58,357 nucleotides of DNA from Candidatus Omnitrophota bacterium (GTDB taxonomy: Bacteria; Omnitrophota; Gorgyraeia; Gorgyraeales; Gorgyraeaceae). The notes under the pieces are model-generated. The model did not search any database, was not told the DNA's origin, and saw nothing but the letters and a program-made list of their open reading frames with translations. Shown here piece after piece: positions 8,018-48,968 of the stretch (the first letter of the stretch is position 1; each line of letters begins with the position of its first letter). The DNA lies in the NCBI GenBank assembly GCA_018902915.1, contig JAHIPS010000081.1, forward strand, positions 1 to 58,357, read 5' to 3'. Position numbers and translations under genes: made by a program.

Positions 8018-8045
8018 TTGACATCCCTAGGTTATATGTTATACT
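8018..8045 (+). promoter_or_regulatory. candidate promoter TTGACA-16 nt-TATACT upstream of the sulfur operon; a second candidate TTGACA-16 nt-TAATAT lies at 8087-8114
   Basis: Hexamers read directly. A 16-nt imperfect inverted repeat (8046-8061 / 8070-8085, core CTACTAAT / ATTAGTAG) lies between the two. Confidence 0.45.
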
Positions 8046-8126: not shown

Positions 8127-8347
8127 ATGGAACATCCAAAGAGATCACTTGCAAAGACAGTAACCTGGCGCGTAATAGCTTTTGTGGTAACTATAGTCGC
8201 TGTTTATATCTATAGCAAGGATATAAAGGAGTCTCTTGTTGTTGGGATAAGCGCAAATGTCGTAAAGATTTTTTGTATTATGCACATGAACGAGTCTGGA
8301 ACAGGGTGAAATTCGGTAGAATTAAAGCCCCAGACTACCAGATATAA
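8127..8347 (+). pseudogene. DUF2061 membrane protein, frame-shifted at a T6 run (8269-8274)
   Basis: Frame 0 gives RSLAKTVTWRVIAFVVT... then terminates. After the T6 run, the shifted frame reads LYYAHERVWNRVKFG, the canonical DUF2061 C-terminus, ending at TAA 8345-8347. One extra T would restore the frame. Confidence 0.6.
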
Positions 8348-8362: not shown

Positions 8363-9088
8363 ATGAGTTTATTAGAGCCACAGGAAGACTTAAAGGTATT
8401 AGTAGAGACATTGAACTTCAAACAAAAGGTCGATCGTTCACTACAGCTTATAAAGGAAGGCTATGATAAATACGGAGACGGTTTTGTAGTAGCCAATAGC
8501 CTTGGCAAGGATTCTGTTGCAGTTTGGCATCTTGCAAAACGCGTAGATCCGAAAATACGAGGGTTTATCGTAACTACCAGGTTTAAACCCAAAGAGACGG
8601 TCAAGTTTATGAATGAAGAGGTGAGAAAATATCCTGAGCTTAAGGTTTATAAAAACGATGCGAAGATACCAGATAAGCTATATGAGACAGATCCGAACAA
8701 ATGCTGCGATATATTAAAGGTCGAGCCTGTTAAGCACGCAGTTGAAGAGATGGGAGTTACGTGCTGGGTAACAGGCCTTCGCTGCACAGAGGGTCGCACC
8801 AGGACAGATTTTAAAGAGGTCGAAGAGCGCGATAAAGGATTAATAAAATTAAACCCTATTCTCATATGGAAAGAACGCGAGGTCTGGCAATATCTGGCCT
8901 TATATGGTGTAAAGGTTAATCCTCTATATACTGAAGGTTACCGCTCTCTTGGATGCGCGCCTTGCACTAAGATCACCAATGAGGATAATGAACGTGCAGG
9001 ACGATGGATAGGCACGAGTAAATGTGGAGGCGAATGCGGTATTCATACACGGCCTTTGAAGGTAAACGTTAACGGAGACGGCATCTAA
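8363..9088 (+). CDS. cysH: phosphoadenosine/adenosine phosphosulfate reductase (Fe-S, APS-type features)
   Basis: PAPS-reductase fold (NSLGKDS, TGLRCTEGRTR), cluster cysteines KCCDILK and LGCAPCT, and a C-terminal ECGIH. Confidence 0.85.
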   Translation: MSLLEPQEDLKVLVETLNFKQKVDRSLQLIKEGYDKYGDGFVVANSLGKDSVAVWHLAKRVDPKIRGFIVTTRFKPKETVKFMNEEVRKYPELKVYKNDAKIPDKLYETDPNKCCDILKVEPVKHAVEEMGVTCWVTGLRCTEGRTRTDFKEVEERDKGLIKLNPILIWKEREVWQYLALYGVKVNPLYTEGYRSLGCAPCTKITNEDNERAGRWIGTSKCGGECGIHTRPLKVNVNGDGI

Positions 9089-10054
9089 GTGGTTATTACG
9101 CTGGTATTAATCATAGTCTCTGTTTTTGTGGCATTAAATATGGGGGCGAGCGGTTTTTCAGTTTCTTTTACTCCCTCATATGGCAGCCGTTTGCTGAAAA
9201 AGTCCAGGGCAGTTGTTCTTTATGGACTTTGTGTTTTTGCCGGTGGGTTGCTCATAGGGCCGAGGGTTGTAAGTACCCTGGTCAATAAGATCTCGCTAGC
9301 GCAGCTTAACCCATATTCCGGTCTTTTGATCTTGTTTTCGGCAGGGGCCATGATGTTTTTAAGTAACATGCTGAAAATTCCGCAGTCCACGAGTTTTGTA
9401 ACTGTGGCGAGTTTTCTGGGGGCGGGCTTATATTACGGAAAGGTAAACTGGCATACGGTTTCAAAGATTATAATCGTAGCAGCTGTTTTTTCAGCCCTTT
9501 CGTTTATAATCACGTATCTTATTAAAAGAAAGATCTACCCGCCGCACAGGGGCAACCTGCATCTTTATGAGAAGTTTCATATTCACAGGAATAAATTTAA
9601 AAATTTTATAATCTGGACTGATATGTATTCGGCCTTTGGGATAGGCACGAATAATGTCGCAAATGTTGTGGCTCCCCTGGTAGGTTCATTGGGCATAAGC
9701 CCGTTTTTAGCCCTTGGATTGTCTGCTCCTCTTTTTGGGTTGGGGGCATATTTCTTTGGAGAGAGGGTCTTGAAGACAGTGTCCAGGGACATAGTGCCGA
9801 TCGGTGAAATGTCAGCGGCCATTGTTTCATCGATCACAGCGACCTTTGTCATTATCGCGTCGTTATTAGGATTACCTGCGCCTTATGTCCAGTTTACTAC
9901 TTTTTCAGTACTTGCGATAAGTTCTGTCAAAGACGGCACAAGGCATACAGCAGGAAAATCTGTTTTTAAAAGGATAATATCCGCATGGATATGCGTGCCC
10001 GTAGCCACAGTTTTTTTGAGTTTTTTATTACACTTATTTTTTATTAAAAGGTAA
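9089..10054 (+). CDS. PiT/PHO4-family anion permease (sulfate uptake inferred from context)
   Basis: 321 aa, polytopic, with PiT-like repeats (NMGASG..., GTNNVANVVAPL). GTG start abuts the cysH stop. Confidence 0.75.
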   Translation: MVITLVLIIVSVFVALNMGASGFSVSFTPSYGSRLLKKSRAVVLYGLCVFAGGLLIGPRVVSTLVNKISLAQLNPYSGLLILFSAGAMMFLSNMLKIPQSTSFVTVASFLGAGLYYGKVNWHTVSKIIIVAAVFSALSFIITYLIKRKIYPPHRGNLHLYEKFHIHRNKFKNFIIWTDMYSAFGIGTNNVANVVAPLVGSLGISPFLALGLSAPLFGLGAYFFGERVLKTVSRDIVPIGEMSAAIVSSITATFVIIASLLGLPAPYVQFTTFSVLAISSVKDGTRHTAGKSVFKRIISAWICVPVATVFLSFLLHLFFIKR

Positions 10055-10055
10055 C

Positions 10056-10454
10056 ATGATTTATATAAATAGAGATCTTAGAAAGGTGCTTATAGAACAC
10101 TCTAAGGATGAATTTCCGAATGAGGCGTGCGGTCTTTTGGCTGGAAAAGATAACAGAGTCGAGAGGATTTATGGAATGAGAAATACCGATAAGAGCGCAA
10201 CGTCATTTTTTATGGACCCGCAGGAACAGCTGAAGGTCATGAAAGAGATGCGCGCTTCTGGCCTTGATTTTATAGGCGTATATCACTCTCATCCTGAGAC
10301 AAAGGCATATCCTTCAGCTCACGATGTTGAGCTTGCATTTTATCCTGAAGTTTCGTATGTAATTGTCTCATTAAAGGATGGAGATAATCCAGATATATGT
10401 TCATTTAAGATTGTAGAAGGGAAGATCACAAAAGAGGAAGTGAGAGTCGAATGA
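10056..10454 (+). CDS. JAMM/MPN+ metalloprotease (Mec/HcyD/QbsD-like)
   Basis: NEACG plus HSHPETKAYPSAHD, which is E...HxH-x7-S-x2-D. Confidence 0.85.
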   Translation: MIYINRDLRKVLIEHSKDEFPNEACGLLAGKDNRVERIYGMRNTDKSATSFFMDPQEQLKVMKEMRASGLDFIGVYHSHPETKAYPSAHDVELAFYPEVSYVIVSLKDGDNPDICSFKIVEGKITKEEVRVE

Positions 10455-11485
10455 GTTTTGTAGTAGTTGGCACAAATCACAGATATAGCCATATTGAGCT
10501 AAGAGAGGAAATATCTTTCTCAAAGAGAGGGCTCCAGGATGCCTTTAATTTCTTGAGAGAGACAGGTGTCTTGAAGTCCAGCGTTATCCTTTCTACCTGC
10601 AACAGGGTAGAGATATATGCTTCTACAGGTACGGCTGAGTCTGGAATACACCAGATAAAGGATTTTCTCTCTAGATTTTACGAGATCAATGGCAAAGACC
10701 TCTGGCCTTACCTTTATATATATAGGGATGAAGACGCCTTAAGGCATTTATTCAGGGTCGCATCAGGCTTGGATTCCCTGATCTTGGGTGAATCGCAGAT
10801 CTTGGGTCAGGTGAACTCTGCATTTCATGAGTCAGGAAAGAATGGCTTTGTAGATCCTTCTTTAGGAGAGATTTTTAATTCTGCGATCTCATCAGCAGGA
10901 AAGGTACATTTACAAACCAGCATATCTGAAGGGAAGGTGTCTATAGGGAGCGTGGCTGTAGATTTTATAAAGGAAAGAATAGGAAGTTTTTTAAGTAAAA
11001 ATATCTTAATTATAGGCGTTGGCAAGGTTACAGAATTGGTTTTGAAGTATCTGGAGAAAGAAGGCAAAAACGTAGTTTTTATTTCTAATAGGACTTTTGA
11101 ACGGGCTCAGTCTCTGGCTCGTCAGATTGGCGCAAAGGCGGTTAAATTTGACAATTTAAAGGAGTATTTAAGTAAAGCAGATGTAGTCATCACAGCAACA
11201 AAGAGCCCGCATTTTATTATTAATAAACAGATTATAGAAGAAGCTGTCAGTCAAAAACGCTTACTAATTGTAGATCTGGCTCTGCCAAGAGATGTCGATC
11301 CTCGGATAAAAGAGATAGATAGGATAGAATTATTCGATATAGAGGACTTAACGAAAGTTATTCAGAGGAATAGAGATAAGAAGAAACATGAGGCTCTTAA
11401 GGCCGAGCAGATTATAGAAGACGAGGTACAGAGATTATGCCAGGAACTGTCAGGGTTGGGACAAGAAAGAGCCCTCTTGCGCTGA
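10451..11485 (+). CDS. hemA: glutamyl-tRNA reductase (short C-terminus)
   Basis: VVGTNHR, active-site TCNRVEIY and the GVGKV Rossmann motif. It ends 49 nt inside the next gene. Confidence 0.85.
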   Translation: MSFVVVGTNHRYSHIELREEISFSKRGLQDAFNFLRETGVLKSSVILSTCNRVEIYASTGTAESGIHQIKDFLSRFYEINGKDLWPYLYIYRDEDALRHLFRVASGLDSLILGESQILGQVNSAFHESGKNGFVDPSLGEIFNSAISSAGKVHLQTSISEGKVSIGSVAVDFIKERIGSFLSKNILIIGVGKVTELVLKYLEKEGKNVVFISNRTFERAQSLARQIGAKAVKFDNLKEYLSKADVVITATKSPHFIINKQIIEEAVSQKRLLIVDLALPRDVDPRIKEIDRIELFDIEDLTKVIQRNRDKKKHEALKAEQIIEDEVQRLCQELSGLGQERALLR

Positions 11486-13509
11486 AACAAGTGGAAGAAG
11501 TTCTAGTTGGGCTAAAAAAATTTCATCCTGATGTAGGATTTGATATTGTTACCATAGATACATATGGAGATATGGATAAAAAAACACCTATATCAAATAT
11601 AGAAGGAACGGATTTTTTTACAAGAGAAATAGACCATGCGCTTTTAAGAGACGAGATTGATATTGCTGTTCACAGCGCTAAGGATTTACCTGACAACTTA
11701 AAAGAGGGGATCAAGATAGCGCTTATTACTGAATCAATCGATCCATACGACTGTTTAGTTTCAAAATCCGGGTTAAAACTTAGCGAACTTCCTCCAGGGG
11801 CAAAGATAGGGACGAGCAGTTCGCGCCGCAAGACACAATTGAAGAAATACAGGAGTGATTTTCAGATCGTAGATATACGAGGAAATATTGAAGAACGTTT
11901 AAGATTACTTGATGATCGCGAGCGACGAGTGACGAACGACGAGCGACGAATAGATGCCATTGTTATTGCAGCTTGTGCGCTGTTGAGATTAGGTTTAAAA
12001 CAACGCATAACCGAAAGATTGCCTTTTGAGATTCTAAGGCCACATCCTTTACAGGGTTCGTTGGCAGTAGTAACAAGAAAGGACAAGGTTGATTTGATAA
12101 ATCTCGTAAAGACAAAGAAGGTCTATATTGTTGGTGCAGGGCCAGGAAGGCCGGATTTAATAAGTGTGAGAGGATTGCGCATTCTTAAAGAGGCCGATGT
12201 AGTCATATATGATTATCTTGTCGATAAGGCCCTTTTGGATGAGACTAAGCCAGAATCTGAGCTCATATCTTGCGGCAAGCTTGGCAAGAATAGATTTTCA
12301 GGAAAGTCTATCGAGGCACAGGCAAGGATAAGTGAGCTAATTGTTGAGAAGGCTAAAGAGGGAAGGCGTGTTGTAAGACTTAAGAATGGTGATGCAACTA
12401 TTTTTAGCCGCCTAAGAGAAGAGCTCGAGGCATTAACTAGAAATAAGATAGAATTTGAAATAGTGCCTGGCGTTACAGCTGCAAGCGCAGCAGCAGGTTT
12501 TAGCGGCATACCACTTACAGATAGGCATGATTCATCCAGCGTTATTTTTTTAACAGGACACGAATCTGATGATAAGAGAAAAACTAGTATAGATTGGAAT
12601 AGAGTGGCTGATTTTGAATCCTTGGTTATATACATGGGTGTTGATAGTATCTCAAAAATAGTCTCAGAGTTAATAAAATCAGGAAAATCCGGCAACACTC
12701 CAGCAGCCGTAGTATCAAAGGCAACAGACATAAACCAGAAAACAGTCAGGGGCAAGTTGAAAAATATTGCTGAAAAGGTAAGGACAGGAGATATTGAGCC
12801 GCCAGCGATATTTATTATTGGAAAAACCGCAGAGCTGGAAAAGGATTTTAACTGGTTCAGGAAGAATAAAAGGGTTTTATTTACAGGTCTGTCTAAGGAG
12901 AGATTCTTTACAGACGGGACCTATTACCACCTGCCTTTGATTGACATAGGGCCACTCGATGACTATAAGGAATTTGACAGCCATTTGAAGAAAATCAGAC
13001 AATTTGACTGGATAGTATTTGCAAGCCGCTATGGCGTGGAGTATTTCTTCGGAAGACTTAAAAAAATTGGGCATGACTCGAGAATACTTAACAACATAAA
13101 AATCGCAGGTGTAGGAAATTCTACAAAGGCAAGGCTTCTTGATTTTGGCATTTCAGCGGATCTGGTGCCGCAAAAGGAATCTTCAGAAGGGTTGATCGAG
13201 GAGTTTGAGAAGATAGATATCAGAGGGAAGAACATATTTTTGCCCCGCTCTGATATATCTGATAAAGGCTTGGAAAAGGCCTTTCAGAAACTCGGAGCAA
13301 TAATAGCCACTTCGTCCGCATATAGAAATAGAATTTCCAGAGATTTGCCTGATTTGGACCTGACCAGCTTTGATGAGGTCATGTTTACGAGCCCTTCTAC
13401 AGTAAGGAATTTTAGAAAAAGATATGGAAGATTGCCCGAGCATGTCAAGGCAAAGTGCATAGGGGATGTGACTTTGAGGGAGGCAAAGAGATGCCGGTTA
13501 ATAGATTAA
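11437..13509 (+). CDS. trifunctional fusion: porphobilinogen deaminase domains 1-2 (no domain 3), uroporphyrinogen-III C-methyltransferase and uroporphyrinogen-III synthase
   Basis: aa 1-about 220: RVGTRKSPLALKQ...HSAKDLP...GTSSSRRKTQL...QGSLAVV (HemC). aa about 225-470: VYIVGAGPGRPDL...VRLKNGDATIF...VPGVTAASAAA (CobA/SUMT). aa about 475-690: HemD-like. Confidence 0.8.
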   Translation: MPGTVRVGTRKSPLALKQVEEVLVGLKKFHPDVGFDIVTIDTYGDMDKKTPISNIEGTDFFTREIDHALLRDEIDIAVHSAKDLPDNLKEGIKIALITESIDPYDCLVSKSGLKLSELPPGAKIGTSSSRRKTQLKKYRSDFQIVDIRGNIEERLRLLDDRERRVTNDERRIDAIVIAACALLRLGLKQRITERLPFEILRPHPLQGSLAVVTRKDKVDLINLVKTKKVYIVGAGPGRPDLISVRGLRILKEADVVIYDYLVDKALLDETKPESELISCGKLGKNRFSGKSIEAQARISELIVEKAKEGRRVVRLKNGDATIFSRLREELEALTRNKIEFEIVPGVTAASAAAGFSGIPLTDRHDSSSVIFLTGHESDDKRKTSIDWNRVADFESLVIYMGVDSISKIVSELIKSGKSGNTPAAVVSKATDINQKTVRGKLKNIAEKVRTGDIEPPAIFIIGKTAELEKDFNWFRKNKRVLFTGLSKERFFTDGTYYHLPLIDIGPLDDYKEFDSHLKKIRQFDWIVFASRYGVEYFFGRLKKIGHDSRILNNIKIAGVGNSTKARLLDFGISADLVPQKESSEGLIEEFEKIDIRGKNIFLPRSDISDKGLEKAFQKLGAIIATSSAYRNRISRDLPDLDLTSFDEVMFTSPSTVRNFRKRYGRLPEHVKAKCIGDVTLREAKRCRLID
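11921..11948 (+). repeat. heptanucleotide tandem repeat AGCGACG|AGTGACG|AACGACG|AGCGACG inside hemC
   Basis: Four consecutive 7-mers read directly. They encode part of the insertion ...DDRERRVTNDERR... in the conserved RGNI..RL...DAIV segment. Confidence 0.85.
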
Positions 13510-14507
13510 GAAGACTCAGGAGGAACAGTGCTATAAGAGACTGGGTCAGCGAGACTGTGCTAAGACCCAAGGATCTCATTTTGCCTTATTTTGTCATCGA
13601 TGGAAAGGGTGTTGATAGACCTATTAAATCTCTGCCGGAAGTTAGTCATCTATCGATTGACAAATTGCTCAAAGAAATAGCTAAGGTGGAAAAAAGAGGG
13701 ATAAGGTCTATTCTTTTGTTTGGAGTACCTAAGAAAAAGGACAAAATAGGATCTGAGGCGTATAATAAGGACGGCATTGTTCAAAGAGCGACAAAAGCAA
13801 TAAAGAAAGAATTCGAAGATTTGGTCGTAATAACAGATGTGTGTCTGTGTAGTTATACGTCTCACGGACATTGTGGTATCATTAAGGGACAAGGGACCCC
13901 ATACCACAAGGGTACGGAGCAGGCAAGTGACAAGAGACAAGGGTATATTATAGATAATGACAAGACTTTAAAGATTTTGGCGAAGATCGCTCTATCTCAT
14001 GCTGAAGCTGGTGCTGATCTAGTGGCGCCTTCAGCAATGATGGACGGACAGGTAATGTCAATAAGAGAAGGCTTAGACAAAAATGGATTTAAGGATATAG
14101 GGATAATGGCCTATGCAGCTAAATATGCGTCGAATTTTTATGGCCCTTTTAGAGAGGCATTAGATTCTGGTCCACACTTCGGAGACAGAAAGACCTATCA
14201 GATGGATTTTAGAAATTCAGACCAGGCCCTGAGAGAGATAGGCCATGATATTGAAGAGGGCGCTGATATTGTAATGGTAAAACCAGCCCTTTCATATCTG
14301 GATATTATTTATCGGGCAAAAGAGAAGTTTAATGTACCTGTAGCCGCGTATAATGTAAGCGGTGAATATGCGATGGTGAAGGCATATTCTCAGGGACAGG
14401 GGATTGAAAAAGAGTTGGCTCTGGAGATTTTGACGAGCATAAAGCGTGCTGGGGCGGATTTTATAATTACATACTGGGCAAAAGAGGCAGCGGGATGGTT
14501 AAACTGA
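13491..14507 (+). CDS. hemB: porphobilinogen synthase (Zn-type)
   Basis: DVCLCSYTSHGHCG Zn site and IVMVKPAL. ATG 13491 has GGGAGG 8 nt upstream (the ORF track starts at 13455). Confidence 0.9.
   Translation: MPVNRLRRLRRNSAIRDWVSETVLRPKDLILPYFVIDGKGVDRPIKSLPEVSHLSIDKLLKEIAKVEKRGIRSILLFGVPKKKDKIGSEAYNKDGIVQRATKAIKKEFEDLVVITDVCLCSYTSHGHCGIIKGQGTPYHKGTEQASDKRQGYIIDNDKTLKILAKIALSHAEAGADLVAPSAMMDGQVMSIREGLDKNGFKDIGIMAYAAKYASNFYGPFREALDSGPHFGDRKTYQMDFRNSDQALREIGHDIEEGADIVMVKPALSYLDIIYRAKEKFNVPVAAYNVSGEYAMVKAYSQGQGIEKELALEILTSIKRAGADFIITYWAKEAAGWLN
13926..13939 (+). repeat. two degenerate heptamers AGTGACA|AGAGACA within an approximately 15-aa insertion in hemB
   Basis: The insertion KGQGTPYHKGTEQASDKRQG lies between GHCGII and IDNDKT. 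The DNA also carries ACAAGGG three times (13880-13945). Confidence 0.7.
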
Positions 14508-15745
14508 GCGACAAGCGACAAGCGACAAGCGACAAGGAGCTTTTTAGCGAAGCCAGACGATTTATTCCTGGGGGCGTAAATAGTCCGGTGAGATCTTTTA
14601 AGGCTGTTGGGGGAAGTCCTGTCTTTATAAAGAAGGCCTACGGGGATAAGATTTATAGTGAATGCGGCGAAGAGTTTATTGATTACTGTCTTTCCTGGGG
14701 CGCTTTGATCTTAGGGCATACTCACAGGGAAGTAATCAAGGCTATAGAGAGCTCATTAAAGAACGGAACAAGTTTTGGCGCAGCTACAAGATTGGAGACA
14801 GAATTGGCAATGCTTATTGCAGAGGCTGTTCCTTCAATCGAACAGATTAGATTAACAAATTCAGGCACTGAGGCAGTTATGGGCGCGGTCAGACTTGCAA
14901 GGGCATACACTGGGAAAAATAAGATTATAAAATTTCAAGGCTCGTATCATGGGCACGCAGATTATCTTTTGGATTGCACAGGCGTGCCAGAGGACTTTAA
15001 GAGACATACAATTGTAGTTCCGTATAACGATATAGGCGCTGTTTTAGAAGCAGCTGAGCTGCACAGGGAAGATTTAGCTGCGATAATAGTTGAGCCAGTT
15101 TCCGGGAATTGCGGAGTGGTATTGTCAGACATTGGTTTTTTGCAGGGTTTGAGAAAGATCGCTGATAAATACAACACAGTTCTTATTTTCGATGAAGTTA
15201 TTACTGGATTCAGGGTTTCATACAGCGGCGCGCAGGGAATTTTTGGAATAAAAGCAGATATTACCTGCTTAGGTAAGGTTATAGGCGGGGGATTGCCGGT
15301 AGGCGCCTTTGGAGGAAGAAGGGAAATTATGGATCTTTTAGCGCCCGAAGGAGACGTCTATCAGGCAGGGACATTGTCAGGTAATCCAGTCGCGGTCACA
15401 GCCGGGATCACGACCTTGAAAATACTGAAAGAAATAAATCCATACCCAGATCTGGAAACCAAAACAAAGAAACTATGTGAAGGGATTATGGCGAGCGCTA
15501 AAAAATATGATATAAAGCTGAGGGCTAATTATATTAGTTCTATGTTTAGCATATTTTTTGGAGAAAATGGACAGGATAAGGGATTATTTAAAAAGTTTTT
15601 CCACGGATTATTAAAAAGAGGTATTTATTTTTCACCATCTGGTTTTGAGGCAAATTTTTTGTCAACCGCGCATAGTAATGAAGATGTAAAGAAGACATTA
15701 GATGTGATCGATGAGACATTTGAAAGTTTAAGGAGGTCAGAATGA
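14495..15745 (+). CDS. hemL: glutamate-1-semialdehyde 2,1-aminomutase
   Basis: [10 protein letters not shown] and PLP-Lys region CLGKVIGGG. It overlaps the hemB stop by 13 nt. Confidence 0.9.
14507..14534 (+). repeat. perfect heptanucleotide tandem repeat (AGCGACA)x4 between the hemL start codon and its conserved N-terminus
   Basis: Read directly. It begins at the last base of the hemB stop codon and encodes [10 protein letters not shown]. Confidence 0.9.
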
Positions 15746-16875
15746 ATATTCTAATCAATGGTAAAAAAGAAGAGTTAAAAGATGTTGTTACAGTGGCTAA
15801 GCTTTTAGAGCAGAAAAAGATCAGACCTGAGGTCGTGACTGTAGAATTGAACGATAAGATCATAGAAAAGAGCAAATATAATGAAATCCAGCTCAAGGAC
15901 AATGACAGAGTGGAGTTTGTCTATTACATGGGAGGCGGATCCGGAAATAATTCCAAGCTGATGGAAAATGTCCTGGAGTCGATAGGCAATACGCCCATGG
16001 TGAAACTTAATAAGATTGTAACCGAAGATATGGCCCGCATATTCGCAAAACTCGAGTTTTTTAACCCAGGCAGCAGCGTCAAAGACAGGATATGCCTTTC
16101 TATGATCGAGGATGCTGAAAACAAGGGGCTTCTTTCCAAGGGTTCCACCATAATCGAGCCCACAAGCGGAAATACCGGGATAGGTCTTGCAATGATTTGT
16201 GCTGTCAAAGGCTATAAATGCATAATCACTATGCCCGAGACAATGAGTCTCGAGAGAATCTATATACTCAGGTCTTTCGGCGCCGAGGTCATTCTTACTT
16301 CGGGCGCAGAAGGCATGAAGGGCTCTATTAAAAAAGCTGAAGAGTTACTAAAGAAGACACCAGTGAGTTTTATGCCCCAGCAGTTCAAGAATAAGGCAAA
16401 TCCTGCTATTCATAGAGAGACAACGGCCAAAGAGATATTGGATAGCACTGATGGCAAAGTGGATGCGTTTGTTGCCGGCATAGGAACAGGGGGGACTATA
16501 ACAGGCGTAGGAGAAGTTTTAAAGAAACATAACCCTGATGTTAAGATAATAGGGGTCGAACCAGCATCGAGTGCTGTGTTGTCTGGAAAAGGACCTGGGC
16601 CGCATAAGATTCAGGGAATCGGCGCGGGATTTGTACCGGATGTTTTAAATCGTCAGGTAATCGATGAGATAATTCAGGTTAAGGACAGTGATGCTTTTAA
16701 AACCTCAAGGAGATTAGCCAGGGAAGAAGGATTGTTTGTCGGTATATCAGCAGGCGCAGCAGCATGGGCAGCTATAAAGGTGGCAAAAAATCTTGACAAA
16801 GAAAAAAGGGTGGTCGTGATTTTTCCTGATACTGGTGAGAGATATTTTTCAATGCAGCAGTATTTCGAGGCATAG
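15742..16875 (+). CDS. ThiS-like sulfur-carrier domain fused to cysteine synthase (CysK/CysM family)
   Basis: aa 1-66 form a ThiS-like domain ending [10 protein letters not shown]. The linker is SGNNSKL. A CysK-type domain follows ([12 protein letters not shown] Lys in [21 protein letters not shown]). There is no stop between the domains. Confidence 0.8.
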
Positions 16876-16886
16876 GGAGCAATTAT

Positions 16887-17744
16887 ATGACTGAATATAA
16901 TATAAAAGAACTCAAGAGTGGTGGGTTGATGAAGCAGAAAGAAAAGGATATATTTTCTCTTCGTCTGCGTATAGTTGGAGGTTTTGTCAAATCCGAACAG
17001 CTGATCAAGCTTTCGGAGATAGCCGATAGATTTGGTAAAGGATATATACATTTGACCACAAGACAAGGCATTGAGATCCCGAACGTAAACATCAAAGACT
17101 TTGAGAAAGTTAAAAAGGAATTAAACGAAGCTGAGCTTCAGATGGGCGCATGTGGCCAGAGGGTAAGGACAGTAACTGCATGCCAGGGAAAGGAATGCAG
17201 TCATGGCTTAATAGATTGTCTAATGCTCGCAAGAGAGATCGATCATAAATATTTTGGCATAGGCGGCCACCCTCATAAATTTAAGATAGGGATTACTGGC
17301 TGTCCAAATGCATGTATTAAACCTCATGAAAATGACTTGGGCATATTAGGCAGATTAAAGAAAAGGTTCGTAAGAGAAAAGTGTAACTATTGCGGGCTCT
17401 GCGCAGAGATCTGTCCAGTAGGCGCAATAGAGGTGGATAAGGACGATGAGAAGATAGTATTTAATGCAGAGAAATGCATTGGATGCGGAGATTGTGTGTA
17501 TTCCTGCCCGACTGATGCGTGGCAAAAAAGGCAGGAGGGCTATACTATTTTTGTCGGTGGCAAGATGGGAAAATTCCCGAAGCTCGGCATAAAGGCCTTT
17601 GACTTTATTGAGACAAAAGAAAAGGTCTTTGAGGTCATAGAAAAGACATTAGAGTTTTATAAAAAGTTCGGCAATAAAGGCGAGAGATTCAGGGAGACAT
17701 TGGACAGAGTAGGAGTGGAGAAATACAAGGAGACGGTTTCATGA
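16887..17744 (+). CDS. small assimilatory-type sulfite reductase (siroheme/4Fe-4S with inserted ferredoxin domain)
   Basis: TTRQGIEIPNV, TACQGKECSHG...TGCPNACIKPHENDLG, and ferredoxin motifs CNYCGLCAEICP and CIGCGDCVYSCP. Confidence 0.75.
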   Translation: MTEYNIKELKSGGLMKQKEKDIFSLRLRIVGGFVKSEQLIKLSEIADRFGKGYIHLTTRQGIEIPNVNIKDFEKVKKELNEAELQMGACGQRVRTVTACQGKECSHGLIDCLMLAREIDHKYFGIGGHPHKFKIGITGCPNACIKPHENDLGILGRLKKRFVREKCNYCGLCAEICPVGAIEVDKDDEKIVFNAEKCIGCGDCVYSCPTDAWQKRQEGYTIFVGGKMGKFPKLGIKAFDFIETKEKVFEVIEKTLEFYKKFGNKGERFRETLDRVGVEKYKETVS

Positions 17745-17977
17745 GTGATGCAGTGCCAAACGAAGTCTTGAACTTGGAGAATATAGCGTGTCCGAATAAT
17801 TTTGTCAGGACAAAATTGAAACTTGAGGAGATGGAAACTGGTCAGACACTGGAGGTAATTTTGGATGATGGCGAGCCCATCAGAAATGTGCCTCGAGCCG
17901 TAAAGGAAGAAGGCCACGAGATTCTAAAGGCAGAAAAGATAGATAATAAATGGAAGATATTGATTAAAAAAATATGA
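17741..17977 (+). CDS. TusA/SirA-family sulfurtransferase
   Basis: 78 aa with the conserved Cys-Pro (NIACPNNFVRTKLKLEEM) and ...LEVILDDGEP. Its ATGA overlaps the sulfite reductase stop. Confidence 0.8.
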   Translation: MSDAVPNEVLNLENIACPNNFVRTKLKLEEMETGQTLEVILDDGEPIRNVPRAVKEEGHEILKAEKIDNKWKILIKKI

Positions 17978-17987
17978 GGTGATTACA

Positions 17988-19214
17988 ATGAGTTATGTAA
18001 AAGGATTAAAGTGCAGAGAATGCGGCAGGGAGTTTCCTAAAGAGGCCCTCTATGTATGCGAATATTGCTTTGGGCCATTAGAGGTAGACTATGATTATGA
18101 GAATATAAAGAAAAAGCTGACCAGGCAGGTTATAGAATCCCGACCCAAGAATCTCTGGCGCTACAGAGAGCTCCTGCCTATTGATGGAGAGCCTACTGAC
18201 GGCTTGAAATCAGGGTTTACTCCTTTGATAAGGGCAAGGAATCTGGAAAAGGTGCTCGGTGTAAAAGAGCTTTACTTAAAGGACGACTCTGTAAATCATC
18301 CCACGCTTTCCTTTAAGGATAGAGTGGTTGCAGTCGCCCTTTCAAAGGCGAAGGAGTTCGGCTTTAAGACTGTTGCATGCGCCTCAACAGGAAACCTTGC
18401 AAATTCTGTAGCAGCCCAGTCTGCTGTAGCTGGCCTGGAAAGATTTATATTTATACCAGCTGACCTTGAATCAGGCAAGGTTATAGGCACATTGATTTAT
18501 AATCCTACTCTTATAGCAGTAGAGGGGAATTATGACCAGGTAAACAGGCTCTGTTCAGAGGTTGCAACAAAATATAAGTGGGCATTTGTGAATATAAATA
18601 TAAGGCCTTATTATGCAGAGGGTTCAAAGACATATGGTTATGAGATTGCAGAGCAGTTAGGCTGGAGGACTCCTAAGCATATAATTGTCCCTTGCGCAGG
18701 AGGTTCTCTTATTACAAAGATCTGGAAGGGACTAAAGGAATTTAAAAATTTAGGACTGATAAATAAGGTTGATACTAAGATTTATGCAGCCCAGGCAACT
18801 GGCTGTGCGCCAATTGTTACAGCGATAAAGGAGAATTCTGAGATCATAAAGCCTATCAAGCCCAATACCATTGCCAAATCACTCGCAATAGGAAATCCTG
18901 CTGATGGCATGTATGCTGCTGCGACTGTAAAAGACTCTGGAGGCACTGCCGAAGATGTTACAGATGATGAAATCGTAGAGGCAATAAAGCTTTTGGCAGT
19001 TACAGAAGGTGTATTTACTGAGACAGCAGGAGGCGTGACACTCGGAGTTACAAAGAAACTCATCGAACAGGGAAAGATCCCCAAAGACGAAGCAATAGTC
19101 GTGTGCATAACAGGAAATGGCTTAAAGACACAGGAAGCAGTGGCTAAAAAAATAGGAAGACCTATAAAGATAAAACCAAATATTGCTTCATTTGAAGAAC
19201 ATGTGAAGCTATAA
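17988..19214 (+). CDS. threonine synthase-like PLP enzyme with N-terminal zinc ribbon
   Basis: CRECG...CEYC ribbon and PLP-Lys motif [19 protein letters not shown] lies before ATG 17988. Confidence 0.8.
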
Positions 19215-19224
19215 AGGAGGTAAT

Positions 19225-19506
19225 ATGTCAGTTAAGGTAAGGATACCAACGCCTTTACAGAAACACACGAATAATCAAGGAGAGGTCAGTGCGGATGCCA
19301 CGAATATAAGGAATCTCATCGAGACCCTTGAGAAGAATTTTCCAGGCATTAAAGAGAGGATCTGCGATGAGAGTGGCAATATCCGCAGATTTATCAATAT
19401 CTATGTCAATGAAGAGGATGTGCGGTTTTTGCAAAAAGACGAAACCCCTCTTAAGGATGGCGATGAGGTCTCAATAATTCCAGCAATAGCAGGAGGCAGT
19501 CAATGA
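19225..19506 (+). CDS. CysO/MoaD-like sulfur-carrier protein with C-terminal GG followed by Ser-Gln
   Basis: 93 aa. [11 protein letters not shown]...[14 protein letters not shown]...[15 protein letters not shown] closely parallels what I recall of mycobacterial CysO. Confidence 0.85.
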
Positions 19507-20333
19507 AACTTACAGATGCGCAGATAGAGCGCTATTCAAGACAATTGATATTGCCTAACATAGGCGGCAAGGGCCAGGAAAAGATTTTAAACGCAAAGGT
19601 CCTGGTGATCGGCGCAGGAGGACTTGGTTCGCCTGCGTCGTTATATCTTGCGTCAGCTGGCGTGGGAAAGATCGGCATTGTGGATTCTGACAAGGTCGAG
19701 GTAAACAATCTCCAGAGACAGATAGTGCATTCCACAAGTACTGTTGGGAAGCCAAAGGTAGATTCTGCAAAAGAAAGACTCAATGCAATAAATCCCGAGA
19801 TAGAGATAGTGCCTTTCAATCTACGGCTAACCTCTGCCAATATCATGGACATCATAAAGGACTATGATATTGTCGTGGATGGCTCTGATAATTTTCCGAC
19901 GAGGTTTCTTGTAAATGACGCATGTGTTCTGGCTAAGAAGCCTCTTTCGCACGGCGGCATATTCAGGTTTGACGGCCAGGCAATTACAATCTTGCCAGGT
20001 GAAAGTGCATGCTACAGGTGTCTTTTTCCTGAGCCGCCTCCGCCAGGCCTTGTTCCGAGCTGTCAGGAGGCAGGCATATTAGGTGTAGTTGCTGGGATAA
20101 TAGGGACTATCCAGGCAAACGAGGTATTGAAATATATACTGAAAACAGGGGATCTTTTGACAGGAAGATTATTGGTGTTTAACGCGCTGGATTCGAGCTT
20201 CAGGCAGGTCAAGGTCCCTAAGGATCCGAATTGTCCGGTATGCGGCAAGAATCCGACTGTTACAGAATTGATAGATTATGAACAATTCTGTCAAGTGAAA
20301 CCCAGGTCCGCCGCAGGCGGATCTGATGGCTGA
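19503..20333 (+). CDS. MoeB/ThiF/HesA-family adenylyltransferase (E1-like), no rhodanese domain
   Basis: [12 protein letters not shown] and a CxxC...CPVC Zn site. The C-terminal tail [11 protein letters not shown] is encoded by a hairpin repeat. Confidence 0.85.
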
Positions 20334-20545: not shown

Positions 20546-20785
20546 ATGCCAAAACTCATTGTACATCTAATATATCCACAGAAATTAATCAAAGAACCTG
20601 TAATCTACACCATGGCTAAAAAATATGATGTAATCCCGAATATCAGAAGGGCCAAGGTCACAGAGGAAATAGGCGAGATGACACTGGAACTCAACGGCAC
20701 AAAGGAAAACCTTGAGGCCGGCAGAAAGTATTTAGAAAAGACAGGAGTCAAAGTCGAACCAGTCGTAGGAGATATTGTTGAATAA
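20546..20785 (+). CDS. NIL-domain protein
   Basis: 79 aa resembling the MetN C-terminal NIL domain (IVHLIYPQKLIKEPVIY...ANIRRAKV-like pattern). Strong AGGAGGAGG RBS. Confidence 0.65.
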   Translation: MPKLIVHLIYPQKLIKEPVIYTMAKKYDVIPNIRRAKVTEEIGEMTLELNGTKENLEAGRKYLEKTGVKVEPVVGDIVE

Positions 20786-23857: not shown

Positions 23858-24511
23858 ATGAAGTGGTTTATCTCACATAATACAATACGATCATCTTTTC
23901 AACTAACACTTGAGAAAGAGTGTGGCGAGAAAGTCAGCCACTGTTATCAGTGCGGCAAGTGCTCTGCAGGATGTCCTATTGCTTTCCAGATGGATTATCT
24001 CCCAAACCAGATTATACGAATGACCCAGCTCGGCATGGAACAACAGGTACTGTCCAGCAGGACCATATGGCTTTGTGCATCATGTCTTACCTGCACTGTC
24101 AGATGCCCTCGCGAGATAGATATAGCAGAGATAATGGATTATCTAAGGCGGCAGGCGTATAAAAAAGGCATTATCCCTGTGGAAGAGACCGAGATACCTC
24201 TTTTCAATAAGATTTTTTTGAGAAATATCGAACTTTTTGGGAGACTTTATGAGATGGGCCTGATAGGCATGTTTAATATGTTGAGCGGGGAGTTTTTTAA
24301 AGACGTGTTTCTGGCCCCAAAGATGTTTCTTAAACAAAAGATCAGTATCTTCCCTCCAAGGGTTAAAAACATAAAAGAGACAAGGGCTATTTTTAAAAGA
24401 TCAGGAAAATTAGGCAAGGCGCACAGAGACAAGCTTCTTAATCCAAGGCTTTTATTTTTGAATCTATCCAGAAAGATCATAGGAAAGATAGCTAAGCGAG
24501 ATAATTCATGA
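23858..24511 (+). CDS. hdrC: heterodisulfide reductase subunit C-like
   Basis: CYQCGKCSAGCP and CASCLTCTVRCP. Confidence 0.8.
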   Translation: MKWFISHNTIRSSFQLTLEKECGEKVSHCYQCGKCSAGCPIAFQMDYLPNQIIRMTQLGMEQQVLSSRTIWLCASCLTCTVRCPREIDIAEIMDYLRRQAYKKGIIPVEETEIPLFNKIFLRNIELFGRLYEMGLIGMFNMLSGEFFKDVFLAPKMFLKQKISIFPPRVKNIKETRAIFKRSGKLGKAHRDKLLNPRLLFLNLSRKIIGKIAKRDNS

Positions 24512-25389
24512 AATACGCGTATTTTCCAGGATGTTCACTTCATTCAACCGCAAAAGAGTACGACCTGTCTACTAAAGAAGTAGCCAGGGCCCTTGGTATC
24601 GAGCTTATAGAAATCCCTGATTGGATATGCTGTGGCGCCACACCTGCCCATATCACAATGCACCTTTTATCATTGGCCCTTCCGGTAAAAAATCTCCTTA
24701 AGGCAAAAGAGATGGATTCATTTGAGGTAGTCACTTGCTGCGCCGCCTGTTTTAGCCGCCTTAAAATAGCCAATCACTTTATGCAAAATGATAACAAGCA
24801 TAGAAAAAATGTCGAAGAGATAGTAGGCGAGCCTTATAAGGGTGAGGTCAAGGTAAGGCATTTCTTGGATGTTTTGATAAATGTTTTTGGATTAAAAAAC
24901 CTGACCGAGAGGGTGACTAATAAATTGAGCGGCCTAAAGGTGGCGTGTTATTATGGATGCCTTTTAACCAGGCCCCCGGAGATTACACAGCTTGATGATC
25001 TTGAAGAGCCGCATCTCATGGACGATTTAATGAAGGTATTAGATGCCGAGCCAGTAAAGTGGCCGTATAAGACAGAATGCTGCGGCGCGAGTTTCTCACT
25101 TACAAAGACAGATATAGTGCTTAAATTATCCGGGGACATACTGCAGATGGCCCATGATGAAGGCGCACAGGCAATAGTAGTGGCTTGTCCTTTGTGCCAG
25201 TCAAATCTGGATTTAAGACAGGCAGCAATAAAGAAAAAATACAAGAAAGATTTTAATATACCGATTCTTTATTTTACACAACTTGTGGGGCTGAGTTTAG
25301 GTATTGAGCCGAAAAAATTAGGACTAGATAAGCATATCGTCAACCCTCTTCCATTGCTGAAGGAGAGAAAGGTCTTGGTCGATAAATAG
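24508..25389 (+). CDS. hdrB: heterodisulfide reductase subunit B-like (two CCG domains)
   Basis: YFPGCS, WICCGAT, TCCAACF, ECCGASF and ACPLCQSNLD. Confidence 0.85.
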   Translation: MKYAYFPGCSLHSTAKEYDLSTKEVARALGIELIEIPDWICCGATPAHITMHLLSLALPVKNLLKAKEMDSFEVVTCCAACFSRLKIANHFMQNDNKHRKNVEEIVGEPYKGEVKVRHFLDVLINVFGLKNLTERVTNKLSGLKVACYYGCLLTRPPEITQLDDLEEPHLMDDLMKVLDAEPVKWPYKTECCGASFSLTKTDIVLKLSGDILQMAHDEGAQAIVVACPLCQSNLDLRQAAIKKKYKKDFNIPILYFTQLVGLSLGIEPKKLGLDKHIVNPLPLLKERKVLVDK

Positions 25390-25391
25390 CC

Positions 25392-27356
25392 ATGAAAATA
25401 GGAGTATTTGTCTGCCATTGCGGAACTAATATTGCCGGCACTGTTGATGTAGAGCGCGTTAGCCAAGCTGCCTCTAAGTTTCCAAAGGTCAAGCACTCTG
25501 CTTCGTATAAATACATGTGTTCCAACCCTGGCCAGAATCTGGTAAAGGACGCTATTAAGAAACATAAATTAGACAGGATCGTCATTGCCTCTTGTAGTCC
25601 CAGCCTTCACGAAAAGACCTTTAGAAAGTGTGTAGAAGCAGCCGGGATAAATCCATATTTGATAGAGATGGCCAATATCAGGGAGCATTGTTCATGGGTC
25701 CACAAGGATAGAGAAAAGGCTACTCAGAAGGCGATAGAGCTTACAAGGCTCGCAGTTTCCAAGGTTTCACGAAACAAGCCGTTAGAAAAGACTTATACCA
25801 CGATAGAAAAAAAGGTTTTGATTATAGGAGGAGGTATTTCCGGGATTCAGGCGGCAATAGATATCGCGTTTGCAAATTATCCGGCTGTCATAGTAGAAAG
25901 AGAGCCTTCTATCGGCGGCAGGATGGCGCGTTTTGATAAGACCTTCCCGACGCTTGACTGCGCTGCCTGTATTTTAACTCCAAAGATGGTAACTGTTTCT
26001 CAGAGCGAACATGTCACCATGCACACCTATTCTGAAATAGAAGAAGTCTCAGGCTTCGTAGGAAATTTTACCGTAAAGATCAGGAAAAAGGCGCGGTCAG
26101 TCGATATTAATAAATGCACTGGCTGCGGCGCCTGTTACAATAAGTGTCCTGTCAAGGTCCCCTCAGAATTTGACATGGGACTTGGTAAGAGAAAGGCTAT
26201 TTACACCCCTTTTCCCCAGGCTGTTCCCAATGTACCTGTTATAGACCGTGAGAATTGTTTGTATTTCAAGACAAAAAAATGCGGCATCTGTAAAAAGATC
26301 TGTACGGTCGGCGCGATAGATTATGATATGAAAGACGAGGTTATAGAAGAGAAATTCGGCGCGATTATTGTAGCAACTGGCTTTAACCAGTTTGACCATT
26401 CAGTTTATGGTGAATACGGCTATGGTAAACATAAGGATATGATAACAGGACTGCATTTTGAGCGCATGGTAAATTCCTCTGGACCAACAGGCGGCAAGAT
26501 CATCAGGCCTTCTGACGGAAAGGAAGTGCGCGACGTTGTTTTTATTCAATGCGTTGGCTCGCGCGATGAACAGAAGGGCCTTCCTTATTGTTCAAGGCTA
26601 TGCTGTATGTACACGGCAAAACACGCGCTTCTTTTAAGAGAGCATAATAAGGATAGCCAGGCCTATGTCTTTTATATCGACATAAGGGCAGCAGGCAAAA
26701 ATTATGAGGAATTTGTAAAAAAGGTCCAGGACGAGTATGGCGCGATATATTTAAGAGGAAGGGTCTCGCGCATATTTGAGAAGGGCGGAAAGCTTATTGT
26801 AAGGGGAGCTGACACATTAAGCGGCGCGCAGATCGAGATAAAGGCGGATTTAGTGGTTCTGGCAACAGGATTGGTTGCGCAAAAGGATGCACCAAGCTTA
26901 GCGCAGATGCTGCATATACCGTATGATAAGAATAATTTGTTCACAGAGGCGCATCCAAAGCTTGCGCCTGTCGAGACAATAACAAGCGGGATATTTTTGA
27001 CAGGGGCGTGCCAGTCGCCAAAAGATATTCCAGATACAGTGGCTACTGCGTCAGCTGCGTCAGTCAAGGCCCTGGGTCTAATGGTGCAGGATAAGCTGGC
27101 AAGAGAGCCCTTGATCGCCAGTGTCAATCAGGATCTATGCTCTGGGTGCCTGGCTTGTCTAAAGGCATGCCCATTTAGCGCAATAGAAGAAGACGAGATC
27201 GAGGATCGCAAGCTCAGGAGAAAAAGAACAGTTGCAAAGGTGCGTGAAGCTGTTTGCACAGGCTGCGGCAACTGTACAGCTGTTTGCAGGATGGCTGCTA
27301 TAGATCTAGAGGGATTTACTAACACTCAGATTATGGAAGAGGTAGAAACATTATGA
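25392..27356 (+). CDS. hdrA: heterodisulfide reductase subunit A-like flavoprotein
   Basis: GGGISGIQAA FAD motif, FIQCVGSRD, several CxxCxxCxxxCP clusters and the N-terminal VCHCGTNI. Confidence 0.9.
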   Translation: MKIGVFVCHCGTNIAGTVDVERVSQAASKFPKVKHSASYKYMCSNPGQNLVKDAIKKHKLDRIVIASCSPSLHEKTFRKCVEAAGINPYLIEMANIREHCSWVHKDREKATQKAIELTRLAVSKVSRNKPLEKTYTTIEKKVLIIGGGISGIQAAIDIAFANYPAVIVEREPSIGGRMARFDKTFPTLDCAACILTPKMVTVSQSEHVTMHTYSEIEEVSGFVGNFTVKIRKKARSVDINKCTGCGACYNKCPVKVPSEFDMGLGKRKAIYTPFPQAVPNVPVIDRENCLYFKTKKCGICKKICTVGAIDYDMKDEVIEEKFGAIIVATGFNQFDHSVYGEYGYGKHKDMITGLHFERMVNSSGPTGGKIIRPSDGKEVRDVVFIQCVGSRDEQKGLPYCSRLCCMYTAKHALLLREHNKDSQAYVFYIDIRAAGKNYEEFVKKVQDEYGAIYLRGRVSRIFEKGGKLIVRGADTLSGAQIEIKADLVVLATGLVAQKDAPSLAQMLHIPYDKNNLFTEAHPKLAPVETITSGIFLTGACQSPKDIPDTVATASAASVKALGLMVQDKLAREPLIASVNQDLCSGCLACLKACPFSAIEEDEIEDRKLRRKRTVAKVREAVCTGCGNCTAVCRMAAIDLEGFTNTQIMEEVETL

Positions 27357-27775
27357 GTGAGTGGGAACCGAAGATAGTAGGCTTTCTCTGTAATTGGTGT
27401 AGCTATGCTGGAGCGGATTTAGCCGGGACCTCCAGGCTTGAATATCCGCCTAATATAAGGATTATCAGGCTCCCCTGTTCAGGCAGGGTCAACCCTTTAT
27501 TTATCTTAAAGTGTCTTTCCAATGGCGCTGACGGGGTATTGATATCCGGCTGTCATATTGGTGACTGTCACTATTCAGAGGGAAATTTTTACGCGCGCAG
27601 GAGATTTGCAGTCTTAAAGAAACTTTTGGAATATCTGGGCATAGACCCGAGGAGATTCCAGATGTCATGGGTATCTGCTTCTGAAGGCGACAAATGGGCA
27701 AGACTCGTGACAGAATTAGTAGAAGAGATCAAACAGGCCGGGCCAAACAAGGATTTCGTTAGGAAAAATGATTGA
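27353..27775 (+). CDS. mvhD: MvhD/FlxD-type [2Fe-2S] subunit
   Basis: FLCNWCSYAGADLAG, RLPCSGRV and SGCHIGDCHY. Confidence 0.85.
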   Translation: MSEWEPKIVGFLCNWCSYAGADLAGTSRLEYPPNIRIIRLPCSGRVNPLFILKCLSNGADGVLISGCHIGDCHYSEGNFYARRRFAVLKKLLEYLGIDPRRFQMSWVSASEGDKWARLVTELVEEIKQAGPNKDFVRKND

Positions 27776-28631: not shown

Positions 28632-28694
28632 GTCCGCTTACAGCGGACTTACTTGATCCCCCCTGTTTAGTTTTGTGAAGCAAAACTAGGGGGG
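28623..28694. repeat. two hairpins: a perfect 15-bp stem spanning the stop codon (28623-28657) and C6...G6 element copy E (28658-28694)
   Basis: ATCAAGTAAGTCCGC-ttaca-GCGGACTTACTTGAT, followed by CCCCCCTGTTTAGTTTTG-tgaag-CAAAACTAGGGGGG. Confidence 0.85.
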
Positions 28695-28710
28695 ATTAAT
28701 TTAATATATT

Positions 28711-29682: not shown

Positions 29683-29685
29683 AAG

Positions 29686-43690: not shown

Positions 43691-43771
43691 CTTAGCCTTG
43701 AATAGAGTTTAGTCAATGACAAAATGCCAAAGTTATTGTAAACTAATACTAATGGCAAAGCAGGAGTTATT

Positions 43772-44215: not shown

Positions 44216-44226
44216 GGTAATAGCTT

Positions 44227-46215: not shown

Positions 46216-46219
46216 AATA

Positions 46220-46245
46220 GTAGGCCAGGTTTAAACCTGGCCTAC
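46220..46245. repeat. perfect 26-nt palindrome GTAGGCCAGGTTTAAACCTGGCCTAC
   Basis: Read directly. It lies between the NuoF-like stop and the fdhA start. Confidence 0.85.
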
Positions 46246-46249
46246 GGTG

Positions 46250-48964: not shown

Positions 48965-48968
48965 TATA

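Follow-up and report, generated by a model that had tools for sequence, protein, structure and literature searches.

How can a sulfur carrier whose chemistry depends on an exposed C-terminal Gly-Gly carboxylate be encoded as the front part of a larger enzyme? This question is raised by an open reading frame (ORF) at 15742..16875 (+) of a 58,357-nucleotide (nt) stretch of DNA from a Candidatus Omnitrophota bacterium (GenBank assembly GCA_018902915.1, contig JAHIPS010000081.1, positions 1 to 58,357 of the forward strand; hereafter the window). Its 377 codons run uninterrupted from a ThiS-type sulfur carrier into a CysK-type cysteine synthase, exactly as a preliminary description of the locus had claimed. 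The reasoning of that description, namely that an internal Gly-Gly cannot be adenylated and that the fusion must hence be cleaved or play another role, also holds. In the primary product the GGG motif (residues 64–66) is internal and 311 residues follow, so that a free C-terminal Gly-Gly is absent and would need proteolysis. As detailed below, the ThiS-CysK fusion is a conserved, recurrent family rather than a one-off, and its comparative features point to cleavage behind the carrier.

The carrier domain spans 15742..15939 (+; residues 1–66, ending YYMGGG) and is separated by the linker SGNNSKL (15940..15960, +; residues 67–73), whose length and sequence vary among homologues, from the cysteine synthase domain (15961..16875, +; residues 74–377 plus the stop codon). 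The NCBIfam thiS model TIGR01683 aligned from its first to its last position (1–64/64) with residues 3–66 (69.4 bits vs. a cutoff of 37.45), which places the end of the carrier at exactly G66, and Pfam ThiS (PF02597) matched residues 4–66 (47.1 bits vs. a cutoff of 22.5). Comparison of the N-terminal domain with PDB sequences retrieved the ThiS proteins 2k5p (E=4e-11) and 1tyg_B (E=6e-9). AlphaFold modeled residues 1–60 with a predicted local distance difference test score (pLDDT) >90, and the top PDB matches of this domain in Foldseek were all ThiS (3cwi, 1tyg_B, 1zud and 1f0z; target-normalised template-modeling score 0.79–0.87). The ThiS-like beta-grasp domain proposed earlier for residues 1–66 is thus borne out by end-to-end profile alignment, and its fold is present by structure prediction.

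The preliminary description had likewise foreseen a full CysK/CysM domain with its pyridoxal-phosphate (PLP) lysine in the motif NPGSSVKDR, and profile scores narrow this down to the CysK type. The cysK equivalog model TIGR01139 matched residues 79–372 with 468.1 bits (cutoff 350.95) and Pfam PALP covers residues 79–363, whereas the cysM models fell below their cutoffs (TIGR01138, 305 vs. 394; NF008735, 294 vs. 413). The best-scoring solved cysteine synthases included 2egu (395 bits) and 2q3b (381 bits), and Mycobacterium tuberculosis CysM was not among the 60 best PDB matches of the enzyme domain. Both the PLP lysine K114 (codon at 16081–16083) and the substrate loop TSGNTG (T141, S142, G143, N144, T145, G146) were invariant in 59 aligned homologues and align with the corresponding motifs in solved CysKs. 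The ATG of the fusion is preceded by AGGAGG 5 nt upstream and shares a 4-nt overlap (ATGA) with the stop codon that ends the preceding aminotransferase gene, indicating translational coupling within an operon. No cysE was found within the 58-kb window.

To gauge how widespread this architecture is, we searched a 5.8-billion-protein collection and examined the best 120 matches. Both Pfam domains were present in frame in 120/120 of these proteins, which stem from independent assemblies, share 73–81% identity with the window protein and mostly bear the names Candidatus Omnitrophica or Omnitrophota; databases call them merely 'cysteine synthase A'. All 120 carry the motif (E/D)xVYYMGGG followed by a variable linker, with LIGxTP of CysK at a distance of 8–27 residues from GGG. 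A hidden stop or frameshift, considered in the preliminary description as a possible flaw, is not apparent, with the frame kept in every one of them, and the database survey suggested there has now recovered the identical architecture in these 120 homologues as well as in 20 species-representative genomes.

When residues 1–130 were searched exhaustively against 1.84 billion cluster representatives, only six matches had E≤1e-30—a count to be read as a lower bound—so that the close ThiS-CysK family corresponds to approximately one cluster at 50% identity. These six matches first suggested a single narrow clade, an idea that was rejected when a genome scan yielded divergent fusions (41–50% identity) with other phylum labels. 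This pattern scan, using one genome per species, identified at least 584 loci with this carrier subfamily, of which the best 80 were classified; 20 of these 80 encode in-frame ThiS-CysK fusions, at 41–72% identity. Together with two metagenome contigs, the set comprised 82 loci, 22 of them fused. The labels of the fused metagenome-assembled genomes (MAGs) include Omnitrophota, Planctomycetia, Saganbacteria, WOR-1, Margulisiibacteriota, Elusimicrobia, Nitrospirae, Actinomycetota and Ignavibacteria, although caution is advised with such taxonomy labels. P0267 and P0140 resemble chimeric fragments and were left out.

Classifying the 82 loci by what follows the carrier GGG placed the fusion in a broader context. 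In the 22 fused loci, 302–317 residues (the CysK domain) follow, while in 29 loci a separate carrier gene lies directly upstream of cysK. Hardly any of these free carriers end at the motif itself: 28/29 have at least one residue after GGG, commonly a single one and often Arg, and the extension is nearly always 1–4 residues. In a further 24 loci the carrier gene adjoins one for an E1-like enzyme (with a JAB gene in 23/24) and 1–11 residues follow GGG; a single locus (L060) has the carrier fused to E1 (275 residues), and the six loci of other classes have 0–47 residues. The first residue after GGG is variable in split and E1-adjoining carriers, and their extensions are short and mutually unrelated. 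ThiS-E1 in L060 is not the only other fusion with the carrier in first position, as P0166 and P0168 encode a Pfam-confirmed ThiS-TusA. The split class is found mainly in Nitrospira and Nitrospiraceae, with some representatives in Omnitrophota, 'Planctomycetia', Desulfuromonadales and Elusimicrobiota. Since the same carrier is elsewhere a separate gene directly upstream of cysK, the window protein represents a merged version of a conserved thiS-cysK pair. Indeed, in a rough neighbour-joining tree of CysK domains, carrier-linked CysKs formed one clade, apart from CysKs encoded kilobases from a carrier, and within this clade fused and split forms interleave. Such interleaving points to several independent fusions or fissions, and judging from these sequences, the ThiS-CysK fusion apparently arose several times.

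Does the carrier domain still behave as a carrier once fused? Among the 59 aligned fused homologues, mean pairwise identity was 65% in the carrier as a whole and 94% in its ten C-terminal residues, compared with 26% in the linker and 79% in CysK. G64, G65 and G66 were invariant in all alignments made, and the junction GGG is present in the 120 homologues and the 22 loci. When pairs were binned by CysK identity, carrier identities in the 60–65% bin were 0.463 (fused-fused), 0.451 (fused-split) and 0.460 (split-split), and in the 70–80% bin 0.564, 0.557 and 0.575, respectively. There is hence no sign of relaxed constraint on the carrier after fusion, and its rate of evolution does not exceed that of free carriers. 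In the full-length AlphaFold model, residues 62–70 (YMGGGSGNN) had a pLDDT <50, which suggests a flexible tail at the junction. Carrier function thus looks to be retained in the fusion, and as an internal peptide bond cannot be adenylated, proteolytic release is implied. The nearly universal extension of free relatives past GGG further suggests that trimming by a JAMM-type peptidase is probably normal for this subfamily. A peptidase cutting after GG would then probably be a standing requirement of these carriers, the downstream protein merely representing a longer extension, and fusion would come at no extra cost.

A candidate for this activity is encoded nearby. The fusion belongs to an operon (8363–20333) of genes on a single strand with gaps of at most ~12 nt, which includes, as the preliminary description had pointed out, a JAMM/MPN+ metalloprotease gene at 10056..10454 (+). 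The protein matched Prok-JAB with 93 bits and has a complete catalytic motif (HSHx7SxxD; HSHPETKAYPSAHD plus an upstream Glu), so that a candidate cleaver does exist. Its relatives include 2kks (106 bits) and PfJAMM1 (5lda, 55 bits), the latter solved together with its ubiquitin-like (Ubl) substrate. JAB is present within the available flanks of 14/22 fused loci, and six of the eight exceptions have less than 4.2 kb of upstream sequence. At its other end, the operon encodes an E1-like adenylyltransferase of the ThiF/MoeB family (19503..20333, +; ThiF 292 bits, GAGGLG and two CxxC motifs), whose 276 residues comprise a ThiF domain only, without rhodanese; E1 is present in 16/22 fused loci. Between CysK and E1 lie the genes for a second, free CysO/MoaD-type carrier ending AGG-SQ (19225..19506, +; ThiS family 64.5 bits) and a threonine-synthase (ThrC)-like enzyme. 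Neither the E1 nor this carrier and its ThrC-like partner had been noted in the preliminary description. The order of the operon is conserved in two long metagenome contigs (L001 and L002).

Several known systems help to interpret this gene set. In the CysO-CysM-Mec+ pathway of M. tuberculosis (with MoeZ), a carrier thiocarboxylate attacks the enzyme-bound aminoacrylate, an acyl shift follows and a JAMM hydrolase releases cysteine. The operon in the window likewise groups genes for a Ubl carrier, an E1, a PLP-dependent beta-replacement enzyme and a JAMM hydrolase, and we propose the same chemistry. Here, however, the synthase-paired carrier is ThiS-type, the enzyme CysK-type and the E1 devoid of rhodanese, carrier and enzyme form one polypeptide, and the CysO-type carrier adjoins the ThrC-like enzyme.

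Cleavage of a carrier from its client has been demonstrated experimentally in molybdenum cofactor synthesis. The M. tuberculosis MoaD-MoaE fusion MoaX is active only after cleavage at Gly82|Ser83, and both glycines matter (PMC4326299). In Deinococcus radiodurans, DRJAMM cleaves the MoaD-MoaE fusion DR2607 and thereby exposes the C-terminal Gly, and the mutant accumulates a pathway intermediate (PMC8832034). As summarised in the same paper, HvJAMM1 cleaves linear SAMP fusions and PfJAMM1 recognises the Ubl regardless of what it is attached to (PMC8832034). ThiS-CysK shares with MoaX and DR2607 the carrier N-terminal to a client enzyme, the conserved GG at the junction and a JAMM encoded in the genome. 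It differs in carrier subfamily, client and product (cysteine rather than molybdenum cofactor), and cleavage, experimentally established for the two MoaD-MoaE fusions, is inferred for ThiS-CysK.

The operon class as such has been described before, in row 4e of Table 1 of Iyer et al. 2006 (PMC1779556). A related thiocarboxylate pathway, HcyS-HcyD-HcyF-MetY of Wolinella succinogenes, is cited in PMC5764234 and PMC8191291. In both cases a ThiS-like carrier with a C-terminal extension is clustered with JAB, E1 and SirA/TusA, and with sulfite reductase, PAPS (3′-phosphoadenosine 5′-phosphosulfate) reductase and a sulfate transporter, all of which occur within 8363–20333 on one strand of the window. 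HcyS, according to Krishnamoorthy and Begley in 2011, reportedly bears one extra residue that is removed by HcyD. The Wolinella client is the O-acetylhomoserine sulfhydrylase MetY, which forms homocysteine, whereas here the carrier is fused to CysK; the PLP enzymes of the cluster are CysK and the ThrC-like protein, and no MetY-type gene is present in it. Eukaryotic ubiquitin precursors (ubiquitin-ribosomal protein fusions and polyubiquitin) are also made with an N-terminal beta-grasp protein ending in GG, which is freed by a GG-specific peptidase. Unlike ThiS-CysK, they give rise to a protein modifier, are mostly processed by cysteine proteases and include no metabolic client enzyme. As to other carrier fusions, Iyer et al. 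2006 reported ThiS-ThiG, Ubl-ThiF (ThiS-ThiF) and sulfite reductase-ThiS, and the relevant passages of that paper contain no mention of a ThiS-cysteine synthase fusion (PMC1779556).

Taken together, comparative data and published precedents argue for cleavage of ThiS-CysK after GG, which we regard as likely. The operon JAMM would hydrolyse the Gly66|Ser67 bond, encoded between nucleotides 15939 and 15940, to yield a carrier with a GGG carboxylate and a CysK with a short N-terminal tail. The freed carrier would be adenylated by the E1 (19503–20333) and converted to the thiocarboxylate with sulfide from the adjacent sulfite reductase or with a TusA persulfide. CysK would form the PLP-aminoacrylate, to be attacked by the carrier thiocarboxylate; an S-to-N acyl shift would follow, and the same JAMM would then free cysteine, so that the carrier could be reused. 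One protease would thereby cut the same kind of bond (carrier-Gly-Gly plus any residue) first in maturation and then in every turnover, and the fusion would ensure equimolar, co-regulated synthesis of carrier and enzyme. The scheme as a whole—precursor cleavage by JAMM, activation by E1 and CysK as the thiocarboxylate client—appears moderately probable to us.

Several points weigh against this scheme. The enzyme is CysK-type and not of the CysM type that M. tuberculosis pairs with CysO, and we know of no CysK-type enzyme that accepts a protein thiocarboxylate. Fused loci L024 and L039 have no JAB within ~10 kb upstream, and the presence of a JAMM is non-specific in any case, because the CysO-type carrier (AGG-SQ) and the turnover step would need one anyway. 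The neighbour-joining tree of CysK domains is rough and without support values, and some of the long-tailed 'split' cases may be frameshift errors. Furthermore, passages of Iyer et al. argue for a non-carrier role of some ThiF-fused Ubl domains (PMC1779556).

Some of these points would be accommodated if the fusion stayed uncleaved and its ThiS domain served, without acting as a carrier, as a tethered adaptor between CysK and E1, sulfite reductase or TusA, or as a regulator of the enzyme, with CysK using free sulfide and the CysO-type protein being the sole true carrier. The second, free carrier in the operon, the ordinary CysK scores of the enzyme, the two fused loci without a nearby JAB and the non-carrier roles proposed for some fused Ubl domains in the aforementioned passages all agree with such an arrangement. 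Split-gene relatives, however, also hold both carriers, which makes the fused domain the orthologue of a free carrier and not an extra one, and an adaptor would need neither the invariant GGG and the 94%-conserved tail nor the unchanged evolutionary rate; repeated interconversion of fused and split forms further speaks against it. We therefore consider a permanently uncleaved fusion unlikely. Quite unlikely, too, is that the tethered ThiS domain with its internal GGG has a role for which no free carboxylate is required, for instance as a docking module within a sulfide-channelling complex of CysK, E1, TusA and sulfite reductase, or as a tail gating the CysK active site; if true, this would constitute a new use of the sulfur-carrier fold. 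A sequencing frameshift or lost stop might have joined two genes, and split versions of the pair do exist in other genomes, yet the 120 independently assembled homologues (73–81% identity) and the 22 loci keep the frame through differing linkers, leaving an artefact next to no probability. Internal initiation at the in-frame ATG of codon 74 (15961), right at the domain boundary, could supply free CysK alongside the fusion. The preliminary description had already remarked that this ATG has no nearby ribosome-binding site, and the sole Shine-Dalgarno-like sequence (GGAGG) indeed lies 25 nt upstream, within the GGG codons, and not at a usable distance. Moreover, a Met anywhere from GGG to the CysK core occurs in only 37/119 homologues, the alignment columns around Met74 have no residue at 50% or more, and such a start would yield no carrier with a free GG. 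As Met74 is not conserved, we dismiss an internal start as very improbable.

Alternatively, the precursor might be cleaved and its carrier mainly serve another client, such as a Thi4 thiazole synthase or other sulfur-inserting enzyme, with CysK using free sulfide and the fusion reflecting mere co-expression of neighbours. In L002, Thi4, ThiM and ThiE follow the operon (15482–17738), and a 2026 study reports Thi4 clustered with ThiS, ThiF and CysK, including in an Omnitrophica MAG, proposing that ThiS-type carriers may donate sulfur to Thi4, with pilot genetic evidence for ThiS dependence (PMC13325395). Another client would also fit the 24 loci where members of the carrier subfamily are accompanied by E1 and JAB and no cysK is adjacent. 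Against this, Thi4 is near only 3/51 ThiS-CysK loci, the adjacency or fusion of thiS and cysK is constant across them, and the linked CysKs form a clade of their own. On balance, delivery mainly to another client is improbable. A thiamin role via ThiG was rejected along the same lines and is kept as a minor rival: thiG, thiH and Thi4 were not found within the 58-kb window, and Thi4 is as rare near these loci as stated above. As a separate observation, Thi4-type thiazole synthase genes also lie downstream of the sulfur operon in L034 (6687–7496) and L035 (7457–8251).

The second, CysO-type carrier of the operon matched M. tuberculosis CysO (3dwg_C) over its full length (E=6e-22), and it adjoins the gene for the ThrC-like enzyme rather than CysK. 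The latter, a PLP enzyme with an N-terminal zinc-ribbon-like segment (17979..19214, +; PALP 236 bits, thrC models), passes the NCBIfam thrC cutoffs and is hence likely annotated as threonine synthase; its scores against solved threonine synthases were ~199 bits or less. In Streptomyces, the MetM-MetO-Mec-MoeZ pathway employs a threonine-synthase homologue that uses a carrier thiocarboxylate, and the carrier is matured by a JAMM (Hasebe et al. 2024; 10.1101/2024.10.14.618325). This pathway resembles the second module of the window (17979–19506) and not the fusion itself. By analogy, the ThrC-like enzyme is probably a MetM-like homocysteine synthase that partners with the CysO-type carrier and converts O-phosphohomoserine to homocysteine; one E1 and one JAMM would then serve both carriers. 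Inspection of the other loci revealed CysO-type carriers (motif PAIAGG) fused in frame to E1 (L030, L034 and L035) or to NIL (L018, L029, L037, L038, L041, L052 and L069), and carrier-first fusions are thus not confined to ThiS-CysK. L001 contains an extra gene for a 324-residue PALP-family protein (13580–14554), located after the ThrC-like gene and before that of the CysO-type carrier. This gene matches the CysK-domain query, so that the L001 organism has both fused and free CysK-like enzymes in its operon.

The remaining operon genes are concerned with sulfate uptake, its reduction and tetrapyrroles. An adenosine 5′-phosphosulfate (APS)/PAPS reductase (8363–9088, +; PAPS_reduct 140 bits) is followed by a PHO4/CysP-type sulfate permease (9089–10054, +; PHO4 125 bits; only 194 bits against the NCBIfam sulfate permease model, whose cutoff is 400). 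Downstream of the JAMM gene, 10451..15745 (+) encodes, by Pfam, HemA (GlutR_N), HemC-CobA-HemD in one ORF (Porphobil_deam, TP_methylase and HEM4), HemB (ALAD) and a class-III aminotransferase read as HemL (Aminotran_3); we infer that the sulfite reductase obtains its siroheme cofactor from this pathway. The three-part ORF (11437–13509) encodes 690 residues with porphobilinogen deaminase, uroporphyrinogen methyltransferase (TP_methylase) and uroporphyrinogen-III synthase; L001 and L002 encode the deaminase separately. Right behind the fusion, a siroheme-type sulfite reductase with a ferredoxin insert (16887..17744, +; NIR_SIR 113 bits, NIR_SIR_ferr 77 bits, Fer4) precedes a TusA-family sulfurtransferase (17741..17977, +; TusA 77 bits). 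This reductase is unusually small (285 residues, two-cluster ferredoxin insert), and its best NCBIfam matches, anaerobic sulfite reductase subunit C and DsrB, were all below cutoffs. A stand-alone NIL domain protein (20546..20785, +; NIL 60 bits), separated from E1 by a 212-nt gap, is the conserved last member of the cluster, with NIL genes in 11/22 fused and 15/29 split loci. Promoter and terminator scans gave consensus-level matches only. Of the sigma-70-like promoter matches in this region, the best (TTGACA-16-TATACT with TG, 8018–8045) precedes an ORF for a 60-residue DUF2061 membrane protein (8127–8309), which itself lies shortly before the APS/PAPS reductase gene. Neither a riboswitch nor any other Rfam family reached the gathering threshold in the window, including upstream of the operon.

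Elsewhere in the window, a molybdenum-cofactor cluster (41880–51879) encodes MoeA, MobA, MoaA, MoaC, a MOSC-domain protein and a MoaB/Mog-like protein. Neither moaD nor moaE was found in the window; cofactor synthesis might also draw on the E1 and the CysO-type carrier from the sulfur operon, or moaD and moaE might lie elsewhere. A heterodisulfide-reductase/MvhD-like set (23858–30510; CCG domains, a large FAD/4Fe-4S protein and FlpD) and a desulfoferrodoxin (1296–1703) suggest that the host is a strict anaerobe. Two adjacent ORFs (30500–30928 and 30949–31416) encode separate parts of a UbiA-family prenyltransferase (profile positions 2–95 and 120–236), a split that could stem from a frameshift, an internal stop codon or faulty assembly.

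Our literature search retrieved no paper describing a ThiS-CysK fusion, which is not proof of novelty. The sulfur-transfer system and cleaved carrier fusions are known, and given the MoaD-MoaE/JAMM precedents the fusion will in principle not surprise a specialist; of use are the pairing of ThiS with CysK, its breadth and the recurrence of carrier-first fusions. The name 'cysteine synthase A' hides the carrier domain, and with it a system whose split pair occurs in Nitrospira and whose fused form is found in MAGs with labels such as Omnitrophota, Saganbacteria/Margulisiibacteriota and Elusimicrobia. Both carrier types fuse in frame to a downstream gene—for CysK, E1, TusA or NIL—which suggests that ubiquitin-style precursors are tolerated, and evolve repeatedly, in sulfur operons with a JAMM. 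Each such fusion offers a 'Rosetta stone' link that predicts the enzyme of the respective carrier. If the proposed scheme is true, thiocarboxylate-dependent cysteine synthesis would reach beyond mycobacterial CysO/CysM to ordinary CysK enzymes with ThiS-type carriers.

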